Positions 3,682-31,314 of a stretch of 32,000 nt of DNA are shown here, in pieces. Origin of the DNA: Microcystis aeruginosa NIES-843 (GTDB taxonomy: Bacteria; Cyanobacteriota; Cyanobacteriia; Cyanobacteriales; Microcystaceae); assembly GCF_000010625.1 (NCBI RefSeq), contig NC_010296.1, positions 570,001-602,000 on the forward strand. The letters run 5' to 3'. Each line of letters opens with the position of its first letter. The stretch's first letter is position 1. Both the position numbers and the translations under genes were made by a program. The notes beneath the pieces were generated by a model, which was not told the origin of the DNA, did no database searches, and was given only the letters and a program-made list of their open reading frames with translations.

Positions 3682-3725
3682 CTGATAACTGGTAACTGGT
3701 AACTGATAACTGATAACTGATAACT
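3682..3725. repeat. Heptamer array (CTGATAA/CTGGTAA)x6 abutting the ndhD stop codon
   Basis: Six in-phase 7-nt units read directly. The ndhD stop (3728..3730) lies 2 nt from the array. Confidence 0.9.
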
Positions 3726-5611: not shown

Positions 5612-5735
5612 GTAGGGTTGATTCATGAATCAACCCTACGATGAATCAACCCTACGATGAATCAACCCTACGATGAATCAACCCTACGATGAATCAACCC
5701 TACGATGAATCAACCCTACGATGAATCAACCCTAG
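5612..5735. repeat. 28-bp perfect palindrome followed by about 7 tandem copies of a 16-bp unit GATGAATCAACCCTAC
   Basis: GTAGGGTTGATTCATGAATCAACCCTAC (5612..5639) is self-complementary. The units run 5624..5735 with no spacers, immediately 3' of the pcyA stop (5763). Confidence 0.9.
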
Positions 5736-6500: not shown

Positions 6501-6504
6501 GGGT

Positions 6505-6553
6505 CAGTAATCAGTAATCAGTTATCAGTAATCAGTAATCAGTTATCAGTAAT
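6505..6553. repeat. Heptamer array (CAGTAAT/CAGTTAT)x7 directly upstream of the pcyA start codon
   Basis: Seven in-phase units end 4 nt from the pcyA ATG (6500, minus strand). A TCTCCTG x3 heptamer array follows at about 6607..6627. Confidence 0.9.
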
Positions 6554-6711
6554 CGGCTTTTTTCTCCTTATCTCCCCTGCTCACCTCTCCCTTCTCCCCT
6601 CTCCTGTCTCCTGTCTCCTGACATCTAAAATCCACTTTACCTCATGGAGCGATCGAGATTAGAACTGGGAAACATAAAATTAACTTTTTGATCCTTCTCC
6701 CAATTTACCCT

Positions 6712-11879: not shown

Positions 11880-12377
11880 ATGTTTCGTCCCCAACCGATA
11901 CCAGCAAAAGCAGGACAGGAATCCGTCTGGGATTATCCGCGTCCCCCGCGCCTAGAATTATCGCCTAAACACCTAAAAATCATCTTTAATGGGGTGATAA
12001 TTGCCGATACTAAAAGCAGTTATCGAGTTCTAGAAACCAGTCATCCCCCAGTTTATTATCTACCGCCCCAAGATATTAAAATGGAATACCTGCAAGCCAC
12101 AGCAGAAAAGTCTTTTTGTGAGTGGAAAGGTCTAGCGGGATATTACAATATCACTGTTGGCGACCAACAGGCAATTAACGCCGCTTGGTATTATCCGGAC
12201 CCGACACCAGAGTTTCAGGCAATTAAGAATTATCTGGCTTTTTATCCTGCCAAAATGACCGCTTGTTATGCCGACGGTGAATTAGTACAACCGCAACCGG
12301 GCAACTTTTACGGGGGATGGATAACCTCCGATGTGGTTGGTCCATTTAAAGGCGTTCCCAATAGTTGGGGCTGGTAA
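11880..12377 (+). CDS. DUF427 domain protein (long form)
   Basis: [33 protein letters not shown] and YLAFY are DUF427 hallmarks. A second, shorter DUF427 gene is at 28908..29192. Confidence 0.7.
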   Translation: MFRPQPIPAKAGQESVWDYPRPPRLELSPKHLKIIFNGVIIADTKSSYRVLETSHPPVYYLPPQDIKMEYLQATAEKSFCEWKGLAGYYNITVGDQQAINAAWYYPDPTPEFQAIKNYLAFYPAKMTACYADGELVQPQPGNFYGGWITSDVVGPFKGVPNSWGW

Positions 12378-12393
12378 TCCCGTTAAGTAAGTA

Positions 12394-12417
12394 GGGTTTG
12401 CTGAAAAAGTTTATTGG
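12394..12417. mobile_element. Solo copy of the IS left terminus (GGGTTTGCTGAAAAAGTTTATTGG) preceded by TAAGTA
   Basis: The first 17 nt are identical to IS positions 899..915. The flanking hexamer TAAGTA (12388..12393) is the same as the MITE's TSD. I found no partner end within 1 kb. Confidence 0.5.
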
Positions 12418-12471
12418 TGGAGTCAGGAGTCAGGAGCCGGTCGTCAGGAGATTATTTTTATTTATTCTTCC

Positions 12472-12492
12472 CACACCCTACACCCCACACCC
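12472..12492. repeat. Heptamer array CACACCC TACACCC CACACCC (3' exon side of the intron, minus strand)
   Basis: Read directly. It is in phase with the array at 13279..13334. Confidence 0.9.
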
Positions 12493-13278
12493 GTTACAGT
12501 AGAGCAGGAAGTCGCCTTCCCACCCCCTGCTTCAAAACCGGACTTACGACTTTCGCCGTATCCGGCTCCTGAGTAACTAGGCTACTGTCATTAGTAGAAT
12601 AATAATGGGAATTATTATTTCCTTGTCTATTCAACCCTCTTGGCTGTATCCCCACCAGACAAGATTGTTGGTTTTAGGGCGTATATGACCGTTGATTGTT
12701 GCTTAGACTTCCTAGTTACCCGTCCTTTGTCAGCATATCTTTGATATTACTCAAAGCCTTGGCTTTTAAGGACATCCTCTCCCTCTATTGACTTGCGGAT
12801 GGTTTCCTACTGCCCCGAACGGGCAGAGTCAATCAGGGTTACTTCGTTCCCTATAACCATTGGTTGAACCCTTAGGATGATACTGTCCACAACAGAGTAA
12901 CGGGAATGCCTTACTGATAGTGGTATGAGCTATCAGCCCCAACTCTGTTAACTTTTGTTTCGAGCCTGTCAGCCTTTTGGCTCGTGGGTGTTGACGATGG
13001 TTAATTCGTATCTTCGCCCCAGGGCTATCCATAGGTTCTGGCTCAACGGGTTTCTGATTTAGGCTATCAGATACCGCTTTTTTTTTCCTCGCTCACTACC
13101 TCAGATGTACCAAGTCTAAAGCAGCAGGAAATGCCGTCACTCTAGGCATCTAGAGGACAGGACTAAGGTTATTACTAACCCGCACCTGTAGGGTTATAAA
13201 GTTATCAAGGTACTACATTTACCAAGCGGCTAATCCTCTAAACGTCTTACTGTCTAGTTTCTAGCCAACGAATCGCAC
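12493..13278 (-). mobile_element. ORF-less group II intron (ribozyme only, 786 nt)
   Basis: On the minus strand the 5' end is GTGCG (13278..13274). Domain V, GAGCCGGATACGGCGAAAGTCGTAAGTCCGGTTT (12568..12535), has the AGC triad, a G.U wobble, a 2-nt AA bulge and a GAAA tetraloop. A DVI-like helix (AGCAGG/CCTGCT) has an unpaired A 8 nt from the 3' end. The 3' end is ...TGTAAC (AY). No RT ORF is present. Confidence 0.75.
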
Positions 13279-13336
13279 CACACCCCACACCCTACACCCT
13301 ACACCCTACACCCTACACCCCACACCCCACACCCCC
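13279..13336. repeat. Heptamer array (CACACCC)2(TACACCC)4(CACACCC)2 (5' exon side of the intron)
   Basis: Eight in-phase units were read directly, ending 34 nt upstream of the ubiA ATG. Confidence 0.9.
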
Positions 13337-13369
13337 TTAACTCCTAGTTTCTACTTTTTACGAGAAATT

Positions 13370-14251
13370 ATGACTATATCCCAACCCGATCTAGAACCCA
13401 CTTGGATGACGATTATTCGCCTCTTGCGCTGGGATAAACCCGCAGGTAGGTTAATTTTGATGATTCCCGCTTTATGGGCGGTATTTTTGGCGGCAGACGG
13501 TGTGCCACCGCTACCCTTGATCGGGGTGATCGTTTTGGGAACTTTGGCCACTAGCGCCGCCGGCTGTGTGGTTAACGATCTTTGGGATCGGGATATCGAT
13601 CCACAAGTCGATCGCACTCGTAACCGTCCTTTAGCGGCCAGAGCTTTATCGATCAAGGTTGGTTTGATTATCGCTCTGATTGCTTTCTTTTGCGCCGCAA
13701 TTTTAGCTTTATATCTGAATTTCCTGAGTTTTTGCCTATGTTTAGCCGCCGTTCCCCTGATTATCTGCTATCCTCTCGCCAAGCGTTTTTTTCCTGTACC
13801 CCAATTGGTTCTTTCTCTCGCTTGGGGTTTTGCGGTTTTAATCTGTTGGAGTGCCGTCACCGGGTCGTTAAATAGTAATACATTTATATTATGGGGAGCG
13901 GTGATTTTTTGGACATTGGCATTTGATACAATTTATGCTCTGTCCGATCGAGAGGATGATCTCAAGGTTGGTATTAACTCTAGTGCCATATTTTTCGGCA
14001 AATACGCCCCGGAAGCCGTGGGGGTCTTTTTTGCCCTAACAGTGGGTTTATTGGCTTGGGAGGGGCAAAAAATGCAGTTATCAGCCTTTTTTTGGCTAGG
14101 GTTGGGTCTATCGGTGATCGCTTGGTGGCGTCAATACCGGCTGTTACGTCAATCGGATTTACCCAAACCAGTTTATGGTCAAATGTTCGGTCAAAATGTT
14201 TGGGTCGGTTTTATTTTATTAGCGGCTATGATTGGGGGAAGTTTGTATTAA
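13370..14251 (+). CDS. ubiA: 4-hydroxybenzoate polyprenyl(solanesyl)transferase, UbiA family
   Basis: The protein has about 8-9 TM helices. It carries the first Asp-rich motif NDLWDRDIDPQVDRTRNRPLA and the second motif YALSDREDD. Confidence 0.85.
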   Translation: MTISQPDLEPTWMTIIRLLRWDKPAGRLILMIPALWAVFLAADGVPPLPLIGVIVLGTLATSAAGCVVNDLWDRDIDPQVDRTRNRPLAARALSIKVGLIIALIAFFCAAILALYLNFLSFCLCLAAVPLIICYPLAKRFFPVPQLVLSLAWGFAVLICWSAVTGSLNSNTFILWGAVIFWTLAFDTIYALSDREDDLKVGINSSAIFFGKYAPEAVGVFFALTVGLLAWEGQKMQLSAFFWLGLGLSVIAWWRQYRLLRQSDLPKPVYGQMFGQNVWVGFILLAAMIGGSLY

Positions 14252-17708: not shown

Positions 17709-17800
17709 GTTCATCTTATATTTAATTCCACCCACCCACTTAATCAGTGAAAAGAAAGTAGCGAAGTTTTCACCTAACACTGTCCACTTAAAACTGTAAT

Positions 17801-17842
17801 CTGATAACTGATAACTGATAACTGATCACTGATAACTGATAT
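17801..17842. repeat. Heptamer array (CTGATAA)3 CTGATCA CTGATAA CTGATAT spanning the tilS stop and last codons
   Basis: Six in-phase units. The tilS stop TGA (17826..17828) and the codons for I-S-Y-Q lie inside the array. Confidence 0.9.
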
Positions 17843-18844: not shown

Positions 18845-18887
18845 CAGTGAACGGTAAACTGATAACTGATAACTGATAACTGATTTA
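18845..18887. repeat. Heptamer array CAGTGAA CGGTAAA (CTGATAA)3 CTGATTT filling most of the tilS-hemF spacer
   Basis: Read directly. The hemF stop (18885..18887) overlaps the last unit. Confidence 0.9.
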
Positions 18888-20889: not shown

Positions 20890-20971
20890 AAATTCAGCTA
20901 TCAGTAAACAGTAACCAGTAATCAGTGAACTGAAAGCTCACATCTGATAACTGATCACTGATAACTGATTA
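20890..20971. repeat. Intergenic region made almost entirely of heptamers (CAGTAAA CAGTAAC CAGTAAT CAGTGAA ... CTGATAA CTGATCA CTGATAA CTGATTA)
   Basis: It spans from the channel start codon (20889) to the nadK stop (20969..20971), which forms the last 3 nt of the final unit. Confidence 0.9.
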
Positions 20972-23839: not shown

Positions 23840-23897
23840 AGGTTAATTCTCTTTTGTGGGCGGATTAAGCGGAAATTACAGGCAATTTTGTGGCAGC

Positions 23898-24758
23898 ATG
23901 AAAACTGACAGCATATTCTATCGAATGTTTCTCGATTTTCCCGATTCGTTCTTTGAATTAATCGCTCAACCCGATGCTATCGTGAGCAATTATCGATTTA
24001 CTTCCCAAGAAGTTAAACAACTAGCTTTTCGATTGGATGGTTTATTTTTGCCGCTCGATCATCTAGAAAATTCGCCCTTTTATCTGGTAGAAGTGCAGTT
24101 TCAAAAGGATGAAGACCTATATTATCGATTATTTTCGGAACTTTTCTTATATCTTAGACAGTATAAACCTTTGTCACCGTGGCAGATAGTTGTTATTTAT
24201 CCTAGCCGAGAAATTGAACGAGAACATCCCCAGCAATTTGAAGACTTGTTATCCTTGGCCAGGATTAAAAGAATCTATCTGGATGAATTGGCAAATGACG
24301 AGACTCCTTCTTTAGCGATCGCCCTGATCAAATTGGTCACGGAAAGTGAGAGTCAAGCTGTTAATTCTGCTAAGATTTTAATTAAACAGGCTCAAAGAGA
24401 AGTGAGCGATCGCTTAGTGCAGAAAAATGTCATTGATTTAATCGAAACGATCATCATTTATAAGTTACCCCAAAAAAGTCGAGAGGAAATTGAAGCTATG
24501 TTGGAACTACAAGACCTAAAACAAACTCGTTTCTATCAAGAAGCTTTTGGAGATGGAATTGAACAGGGAATTGAACAGGGAATTGAACAGGGAATTGAAC
24601 AGGGAATTGAACAGGGAATTGAACGGGGAATAAACTTGCAAAAATTGAAAACAATTCCTCTACTGCAAGACCTCGGTTTAACCCCGCAACAAATCTCGGA
24701 ACGCTTAGACTTGACTCTGGAAACAGTGCTTAACTATTTGGCACAACAGCAACAATGA
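23898..24758 (+). CDS. Rpn-family recombination-promoting nuclease / putative transposase (DUF2887-like, PD-(D/E)XK)
   Basis: The N-terminus, MKTDSIFYRMFLDFPDSFFELI, is characteristic of this cyanobacterial family. I place the start at the ATG at 23898, whereas the ORF track starts at an upstream GTG at 23856. It contains an in-frame (GIEQ)x6 repeat. Confidence 0.7.
   Translation: MKTDSIFYRMFLDFPDSFFELIAQPDAIVSNYRFTSQEVKQLAFRLDGLFLPLDHLENSPFYLVEVQFQKDEDLYYRLFSELFLYLRQYKPLSPWQIVVIYPSREIEREHPQQFEDLLSLARIKRIYLDELANDETPSLAIALIKLVTESESQAVNSAKILIKQAQREVSDRLVQKNVIDLIETIIIYKLPQKSREEIEAMLELQDLKQTRFYQEAFGDGIEQGIEQGIEQGIEQGIEQGIERGINLQKLKTIPLLQDLGLTPQQISERLDLTLETVLNYLAQQQQ
24555..24626 (+). repeat. In-frame 12-bp tandem repeat GGAATTGAACAG x6 (last unit GGAATTGAACGG)
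   Basis: Read directly. It encodes GIEQGIEQGIEQGIEQGIEQGIER. Confidence 0.95.
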
Positions 24759-27581: not shown

Positions 27582-27709
27582 GAAATTCCGTTATCAGTTA
27601 TCAGTGAGGGATTCGGGGTTTGGTTCTTTTCAGTGAGCGGTAAATAGTAAACAGTAATCAGGGATAAAGATGAAGATAACTAACTAACTAATTAACTTAA
27701 AACTTACAT

Positions 27710-27744
27710 CTGATAACTGATAACTGATCACTGATCACTGATTA
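27710..27744. repeat. Heptamer array (CTGATAA)2 (CTGATCA)2 CTGATTA ending in the stop codon of the upstream gene
   Basis: Five in-phase units. The stop TAA (27742..27744) is the last 3 nt of the array. A CAGTAAN-type half-array lies at about 27585..27662. Confidence 0.9.
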
Positions 27745-31013: not shown

Positions 31014-31061
31014 CAGCCAGCATTCAGCTAGAAAAGGTACTCTGGCAAGAGTGCCTAAGTA

Positions 31062-31268
31062 GGGTTGGCTGAATAAATCTAAAAACCTTGTTAGATAAGG
31101 CTTTTAGACTTTTTTGACCTCAAAAAGTGCTGACCATTGGAGTGATCGGGGGTAAAATTCTGGGACTTTTTCCCTGAAAATTAGGTAACTTACTACCTCA
31201 AAATCGGTAAAACCCCACACCCCACACCCCACACCCTGCACCCACGAAAAACTTTTTGCCGCAAACCC
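31062..31268. mobile_element. 207-bp MITE, non-autonomous derivative of the IS at 899..2580, with 6-bp TSD TAAGTA
   Basis: The left end, GGGTTGGCTGAATAAATCTAAAAACCTT, matches the reverse complement of the IS right end (GGGTTTGCTGAATAAATCTAAAAACCTT). The reverse complement of the right end, GGGTTTGCGGCAAAAAG, matches the IS left end. TAAGTA occurs at 31056..31061 and 31269..31274. CCCCACA heptamers lie internally at 31213..31243. Confidence 0.75.
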
Positions 31269-31314
31269 TAAGTAGTCTTGAGCATCACTACGGATTAAAA
31301 TTTGCAAATCTTAT

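Follow-up and report, generated by a model that had tools for sequence, protein, structure and literature searches.

We analysed a 32,000-nt stretch of the Microcystis aeruginosa NIES-843 genome (contig NC_010296.1, positions 570,001 to 602,000 of the forward strand; hereafter the window, in whose coordinates all positions are given) and focused on a 786-nt element lying between a DUF427 gene (11880..12377, plus strand) and the UbiA prenyltransferase gene ubiA (13370..14251, plus strand), both confirmed with Pfam. Read on the minus strand from 13278 to 12493, thus antisense to both neighbours, the element starts with the bases GTGCG, ends with GTAAC and interrupts an array of the heptamer GGGTGTR, eight units of which precede it (13279..13334) while three units followed by GGG come after it (12469..12492). 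The two blocks are in phase, and removal of the element joins them into 11 whole units. The window holds 11 occurrences of the 14-nt double unit, each within one of three arrays, and 100 shuffles gave none. A sequence-only reading of this DNA had proposed that the element is a group II intron devoid of an open reading frame (ORF) for a reverse transcriptase (RT) or maturase, with the ends named above, inserted exactly between two in-phase heptamers and antisense to the DUF427 and ubiA genes; on all these points the proposal was borne out. By its sequence and predicted fold, the element is a group II intron of IIB-type structure, akin to the introns of other cyanobacteria that encode proteins with RT, maturase and HNH domains. 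Its parts, the exon-binding sites (EBS), the intron-binding sites (IBS) and a further target-like site are listed below, together with the evidence for each.

12493..13278, minus strand: complete ORF-less group II intron, 786 nt (RF00029 match; alignment of domains I to III from nt 1; copies with the same ends; minimum free energy (MFE) z-score of -5.8).
13279..13334, minus strand: 5' exon, eight GGGTGTR units, with IBS1 GGUGUG at 13284..13279 (-6..-1) and IBS2 GGGUGU at 13292..13287 (-14..-9) (junction comparison).
12469..12492, minus strand: 3' exon, three GGGTGTR units plus GGG, IBS3 being the G at 12492 (junction comparison).
12843..13278, minus strand: domain I, with closing helix UUCGUU/AACGAA (alignment and RNAalifold consensus).
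12986..12991, minus strand: EBS2 ACACCC, in the single-stranded junction 5' of the hairpin CGAGCC/GGCUCG (6/6 pairs with GGGUGU, -14..-9).
12922..12927, minus strand: EBS1 CAUACC, in the loop of the hairpin CUGAUAG/CUAUCAG (6/6 pairs with GGUGUG, -6..-1).
12885, minus strand: candidate EBS3, the C of the internal loop GGACAG in domain I (column 415 of the alignment; pairs with G at +1).
12780..12838, minus strand: domain II (consensus and MFE fold).
12777, minus strand: gamma nucleotide, a G in the linker between domains II and III, pairing with the C at 12493 (covariation of column 556).
12722..12773, minus strand: domain III (consensus and MFE fold).
12573..12719, minus strand: domain IV, a reduced stem-loop (about 147 nt, closing strands GUAACUAGG/CCUAGUUAC) without an ORF (MFE fold).
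12535..12568, minus strand: domain V, 34 nt, with AGC triad, AA bulge and GAAA loop (RF00029 alignment).
12496..12532, minus strand: domain VI, a long helix with a GCGA loop and a bulged branch-point A at 12500 (RF00029 alignment and MFE fold).
12829..13032, minus strand: 67-aa ORF inside domain I, likely spurious (no Pfam match; overlaps conserved RNA helices).
31216..31236, minus strand: unoccupied target-like site, (GGGTGTG)3 plus GGG, inside a repeat resembling a MITE (miniature inverted-repeat transposable element) (array scan).

The Rfam model of domains V and VI (RF00029) matched at 12570..12493 on the minus strand over its full length (positions 1-77), scoring 55 bits (gathering score 40; E 2e-8), and this match both encloses the 34-nt domain V proposed earlier at 12568..12535 and ends at 12493. 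Among the Rfam models of domains I to IV a single sub-threshold match was obtained (RF01999, 24.5 bits against a cut-off of 36), and after this weak result domains I to III were assessed by direct alignment to RT-bearing homologs. The model of the plastid ndhA/ndhB-type domain V (RF04356) scored 41.7 bits, below its cut-off of 61, and the relatives at loci L002 and L003 pass RF04357. BLAST against plasmids returned matches of 75-84% identity, which begin exactly at nt 1 of the element and run over its 5' 86-96 nt; the one on the Fremyella plasmid AP018240 (L003) belongs to an intron of 2.4 kb, which has its own RF00029 match and for which an RNA-directed DNA polymerase of 608 aa is annotated. 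Furthermore, scanning one genome per species for a domain V pattern gave 90 stretches, among them related introns with protein genes in Symploca (L083 and L039), Pelatocladus (L040) and Richelia (L063). The element and these five RT-bearing introns (L003, L083, L039, L040 and L063), aligned from the first base, share a mean column identity of 67% over domains I to III, and their RNAalifold consensus holds 122 pairs, 74 of them with compensatory changes, recovering the domain I closing helix, its sub-branches and domains II and III. The single-sequence MFE fold of the element (z-score of -5.8) shows domains II to VI as expected. Domains I to IV can thus be folded, and for domains I to III the fold is backed by covariation.

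At the 5' end, GUGCG occupies intron nt 1-5 and fits GUGYG. The AA bulge of domain V is also present in the RT-bearing relatives L083, L040, L039 and L063. For domain VI, the earlier suggestion of an unpaired A located 8 nt from the 3' end holds (12500, in the RF00029 alignment and the MFE fold), but the helix AGCAGG/CCUGCU with a single-stranded tail is better replaced by a long helix with basal pairs GCAG/CUGU. The gamma-gamma' interaction gives the 3' boundary independent support: in each of the six introns, column 556 (G 12777) and the final intron base covary (G:C in four, A:U in two), and this pairing fixes the end of the element. An alternative 5' end, the GTGCG at 13185, was rejected as a splice site: in the alignment it falls within a helix that belongs to domain I of the homologs, and every copy and every BLAST match starts at 13278. 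The element is not an intron of class C (IIC), as EBS2 is present and pairs, domain I spans 436 nt and the target is a linear tandem repeat; nor is it a MITE, the ends being GUGCG... and ...GUAAC, the flanking units in phase and the array whole after intron removal.

Sites complementary to the flanks are present in domain I, as the sequence-only reading had anticipated, but ACACCC at 12991..12986, its candidate, is EBS2 and not EBS1, which is CAUACC at 12927..12922. The EBS1 position is a hairpin loop in all six introns and is unpaired in the MFE fold of the element. In each of the five homologs, 5-6 of 6 EBS1 positions pair with the 5' exon of that intron, these exons being unrelated. Four of the homologs share the loop offset of the match; at this offset Richelia L063 forms 4 of 6 pairs, and this intron, which fits the EBS/IBS scheme poorly, was left out as support for it. 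At the six positions of EBS2, the pairs with the respective exon number 5/6 in L003 (Fremyella), 6/6 in L040 (Pelatocladus), and 5/6 and 4/6 in the two Symploca introns L039 and L083. Column 415, the EBS3 candidate, pairs with the first base of the 3' exon in five of the six introns (C:G, C:G, G:C, A:U and G:C), and this pairing together with the base changes between introns fits the EBS3 of IIB introns. The positions of EBS1, EBS2 and EBS3 all covary with the exons in the homologs. It follows from the pairing that the intron RNA would read two successive repeat units plus the next G.

The element is one of several copies in Microcystis. Nine contigs of one M. aeruginosa metagenome-assembled genome (MAG), returned by the domain V scan, end in 100-117 nt that are 100% identical to the 3' end of the intron, and other copies were found by a metagenome scan with the first 36 nt and by look-ups of small ORFs. 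Full copies were obtained from three other loci, namely L095/L096, where the copy sits between a GST-like gene and a response regulator gene, L099, and L103 in strain PCC 9443; they are 784-787 nt long, 98.5-99.6% identical and have the same ends, so that the boundaries at 13278 and 12493 are shared by homologous copies elsewhere. No copy was found in phage or viral DNA collections, and the search of the plasmid collection likewise gave no copy, only distant 5'-end or domain-level matches in other cyanobacteria. In the copy at L104, EBS1 reads UAUACC, a variant that would pair with a GGGTGTA unit.

Comparison of the junctions showed how closely the copies are tied to the heptamer. Eight distinct 5' junctions (window, L096, L097, L098, L099, L100, L102 and L103) all end in GGGTGTR-GGGTGTR, immediately before the intron, with GGGTGT invariant at -14..-9 and at -7..-2 (8/8), G at -1 in seven and A in one, and G at -8 in six. 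The 14 distinct 3' junctions, nine of which come from a single genome, the above MAG with its at least nine junctions, all start with GG (+1 and +2 are G in 14/14); 12 start with GGG and nine with GGGTGT. The junctions of both sets are all located within GGGTGTR arrays or at an array's end. Copies differ in their heptamer units, with 2-13 of them upstream and 0-3 downstream, and also in the pattern of A and G at the variable position. For about half of the junctions the context is a MITE-like repeat, roughly 215 bp long and with inverted ends; the others are found in unrelated spacers. In about 166 kb of Microcystis DNA we counted 31 arrays of two or more units, most of them empty. Judged from these junctions, the heptamer array is the target of the intron and a simple-sequence repeat serves as its landing site; that it might act as a multi-copy landing site had been raised in the sequence-only reading, in which the same heptamer had also been noticed inside a MITE, and it does occur at 31216..31236, within the MITE-like dispersed repeat.

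This repeat occupies about 31055..31270 on the minus strand of the window, carries the inverted ends TAGGGTTTGC.G... and ...CAGCCAACCCTA around an internal (GGGTGTG)3, and is present at many Microcystis loci, several of which have the intron inserted in its array; it flanks intron copies at L030, L061, L069, L087, L092, L099 and L103. The DUF427-ubiA spacer, too, has a sequence matching the end of the repeat, AAGTAGGGTTTGCTGAAAAAG, at about 12390..12415. In addition, all eight independent 5' junctions have an A at -15, although G prevails at the corresponding repeat positions -8 and -1, and no intron base is placed to pair with this A. We conjecture that this A may reflect a contact with a protein, or a sampling effect with n=8.

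Alleles without the intron were found at the orthologous locus. In L001, a short contig that encodes an identical UbiA protein and is 98.4% identical to the window over ubiA, the spacer holds two heptamer units and no intron. A look-up with the DUF427 protein gave ten further orthologous Microcystis loci (L105-L114), none with the intron, which is therefore present in 0 of 11 orthologous loci, their flanks being 97-98% or 100% identical to the window. Two of them, L108 and L111, supply an empty site of the kind that the sequence-only reading had proposed to look for: their spacer flanks are identical to those of the window and enclose an uninterrupted array of ten units, which written by the last base of each unit is GGGAAAGGAG, whereas the window minus the intron reads GGAAAAGG^GAG in the same notation. 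The arrays of L108 and L111 thus have one unit fewer and one A/G difference. Because two Microcystis genomes have the same spacer with an uninterrupted heptamer array, the intron boundaries at 13278 and 12493 are exact.

With respect to the closest empty alleles, the array of the window has one more G unit at the insertion point. The spacer itself (12378..13369 in the window; from 3499 to the ubiA start in L105-L114) is hypervariable among Microcystis strains: its microsatellites GGGTGTR, GGGGAAGT, AATTATG and CCTTTTG differ in unit number between strains, and two strains have an ISAZ013-type transposase insertion at the same spot. The spacer upstream of ubiA is thus a hot spot for insertions.

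The absence of an RT or maturase gene from the element was confirmed. Tblastn with the protein encoded by the Fremyella intron L003 found no RT remnant, only 22 residues overlapping domain V, a match that reflects conservation of the RNA since the ORF of the relatives runs into domain V. The 67-aa ORF at 12829..13032 is most likely spurious; it has no family match and overlaps conserved helices, and was rejected as a gene. The same applies to a 53-aa ORF overlapping domain V, which has no family match and whose likeness to the C-terminus of intron proteins reflects ORFs running into domain V. By eye, the 5' side of domain IV, UAGGAAGU-UCUAA-GCAA-CAAUCAA, is similar to the region of the L003 protein gene that holds the ribosome-binding site and the start, as would be expected of a deletion derivative. 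The proteins of the RT-bearing relatives have about 600 aa and combine RT and maturase domains with an HNH domain. Seven group II RTs are reported for M. aeruginosa NIES-843 (PMC8934634), and ORF-less cyanobacterial introns are mobilised in trans (PMC2882425); on both grounds a helper protein is plausible.

Taken together, the data suggest, with a probability that we put at roughly 0.8, that the element is one copy of a non-autonomous, ORF-less family of Microcystis group II introns whose EBSs target two heptamer units, at which the intron RNA reverse-splices with the help of an RT acting in trans. The RNA would be transcribed and spliced, and the excised intron RNA would reverse-splice into DNA at GGGTGTR-GGGTGTG^GGG, so that every array with at least two units would be a potential home. 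An RT made elsewhere in the same cell, presumably the product of an autonomous intron, would then copy the reverse-spliced RNA, which is the way in which the ORF-less TeI3 introns of Thermosynechococcus move. The simplest reading is thus that a non-autonomous intron retrohomes. As the arrays are non-coding, numerous and partly borne by MITEs, insertions would be cheap for the host and many copies could build up.

Two other explanations concern what the element is and how it reached the arrays. A chance domain V-like hairpin in repeat-rich intergenic DNA would account for the weak response of the Rfam domain I-IV models, but it would leave unexplained the RF00029 score above the gathering threshold, the extensive covariation in the domain I-III alignment with RT-bearing introns, the covarying gamma-gamma' and EBS/IBS pairings and the MFE z-score, and for practical purposes it is refuted. 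Alternatively, the heptamers might not be a target at all, being instead terminal repeats of the element, or the copies might have spread passively, carried inside the MITE or through recombination of one array with another. The same MITE-like repeat does hold about half of the 3' junctions, as well as the 5' junctions of L099 and L103, and for these a composite of MITE and intron could have been moved by a transposase. The empty alleles, however, already hold the array and most arrays are unoccupied, the unit number and the A/G pattern on either side differ from copy to copy, and at least six junctions are in contexts other than the MITE. Moreover, EBS1, EBS2 and EBS3 explain the sequence at the junctions, and in the relatives these positions change in step with the exons. 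We therefore regard passive spread as very improbable, and homing of the intron into the heptamer array as the better account.

Other observations weigh against the intron family being mobile with the aid of a helper. The searches for such a protein were negative: a protein search with the 53-aa ORF matched two small Microcystis ORFs and no helper, none of the best 120 homologs of the Fremyella intron-encoded protein is from Microcystis, and tblastn of the latter protein against the approximately 166 kb of Microcystis DNA found none. Among at least 5000 tblastn matches on plasmids, no Microcystis appears in the ten records shown or in the ten commonest genera. Of the 122 consensus pairs the Microcystis element retains 103 and the relatives 112-116; the missed pairs are partly alignment offsets, in which well-formed hairpins are differently aligned, and partly real, including two U-U mismatches in one small hairpin of domain I. 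The copies at L097 (12610..13870) and L098 (3411..4555) are cut by insertion sequence (IS) elements at intron nt 140 and 115, respectively, and that at L104 (1..289) has lost domains III and V by internal deletion. The window copy, furthermore, lies antisense to both neighbours, and a promoter scan upstream of it on the intron strand gave nothing above shuffled expectation, a result that leaves its transcription undecided. With this orientation and no promoter-like site upstream, the window copy may be silent even if the intron family is active. The missing helper, the somewhat higher number of mispairs than in autonomous relatives, the interrupted or deleted copies and the position of the window copy would also fit a fossil family that homed into heptamer arrays once, with all copies now inactive and the window copy a silent relic. 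We consider this unlikely, although less so than passive spread, given that full copies at different loci are 98.5-99.6% identical, that the window insertion is missing from 11 orthologous loci with flanks 97-98% or 100% identical, and that the at least nine junctions in one MAG share terminal 100-117 nt without a difference, all of which points to very recent movement.

One of the known systems close to the trans-mobilised Microcystis intron proposed here is TeI3 of Thermosynechococcus elongatus (Mohr et al. 2010), likewise a family of near-identical multi-copy IIB introns in a cyanobacterial host, with a domain IV lacking an ORF, good EBS/IBS matches at the insertion sites and a location mostly in intergenic or other mobile DNA; the mobility of TeI3 depends on "driver" proteins of ORF-containing relatives (PMC2882425). 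The TeI3 families, however, go to unique sites between genes, to a site within an element of the IS200 family or into the ORF of other introns, whereas the Microcystis intron targets two units of a microsatellite, and the ORF-containing parents of the T. elongatus introns are present in the same genome and were tested experimentally (PMC2882425), while for the Microcystis family the searches above turned up no parent or helper. The Nostocales and Oscillatoriales introns (L003, L083, L039 and L040) have a homologous ribozyme, the same domain V, and EBS and gamma nucleotides at the same positions, but they are 2.4 kb long, encode a protein of about 600 aa and have EBSs that match unrelated, non-repetitive exons. 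Class C introns insert in integron attC sites and in the DNA that follows terminator hairpins; the insertion site of RmInt1 is in ISRm2011-2. Like the Microcystis intron, both exploit a recurrent sequence outside essential coding DNA, which permits many copies at low cost. Yet IIC introns have no EBS2 and recognise a hairpin in the DNA together with a short IBS1, in contrast to the EBS1-3, the full-size IIB-type domain I and the linear tandem-repeat target described here, and RmInt1 is autonomous and targets a unique site within an IS element, whereas the Microcystis intron is ORF-less. In being short, non-autonomous, near-identical in many copies, polymorphic for presence between strains and presumably dependent on an enzyme encoded elsewhere, the element also resembles MITEs and the introner elements of eukaryotes. 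Unlike these, the Microcystis element is an RNA-catalytic retroelement lacking both terminal inverted repeats and a target-site duplication, and base pairing of its RNA sets the site. The use of recurrent or mobile DNA as group II intron home sites is already known (PMC8919778, PMC2882425), as are ORF-less families and mobilisation in trans. In the open-access literature we found no report of a group II intron with a microsatellite home site, in agreement with the sequence-only reading, which knew of no group II intron targeting a heptamer repeat, nor of this Microcystis family; the Microcystis genome papers that were checked do not mention group II introns.

Arrays with at least four GGGTGTR units, including 13279..13334, fit the G-quadruplex-forming pattern G3N4G3N4G3N4G3, and heptamers of the GGGNATC type have been studied as G-quadruplex-forming repeats in Xanthomonas and Nostoc (PMC4692102). 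Many intergenic arrays of the window are built of the heptamer TAACTGA (phases CTGATAA, TCAGTAA and AACTGAT; 3682..3725, 6504..6554, 17792..17841, 18857..18884, 20944..20969, 27675..27742 and others), a repeat whose abundance in Beggiatoaceae and cyanobacteria, M. aeruginosa NIES-843 among them, has been described (PMC4679880). Moreover, a 16-nt unit, ATGAATCAACCCTACG, is repeated 6.9 times with 100% matches at 5625..5734, and a 12-nt unit, GGAATTGAACAG, 6.4 times in perfect or near-perfect copies at 24555..24631, inside the ORF 23856..24758.

Bacterial group II introns are usually of low copy number, as each has one or a few homing sites and insertions can hurt the host. A short tandem repeat that is scattered through the genome and carried by MITEs would, when used as home, offer many harmless targets and tie intron spread to the dynamics of a microsatellite. 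More tentatively, and with odds slightly below even in our judgement, the family may be a currently active, MITE-like non-autonomous intron that homes naturally on a G-rich heptanucleotide microsatellite, its EBSs reading successive units while slippage keeps creating and destroying sites and the helper reads the phase at the A at -15. If so, replication slippage would provide a self-renewing, low-cost pool of targets, a mode of proliferation undescribed for group II introns, and the family would be a tractable bacterial model of intron multiplication in non-coding DNA. ORF-less families mobilised in trans are the best bacterial model for the spread of introns in early eukaryotes, and few cases are known. 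The Microcystis family would thus add a simple test system, in which arrays of one, two, three or more units can be compared, as well as a strain-level marker in bloom-forming Microcystis.

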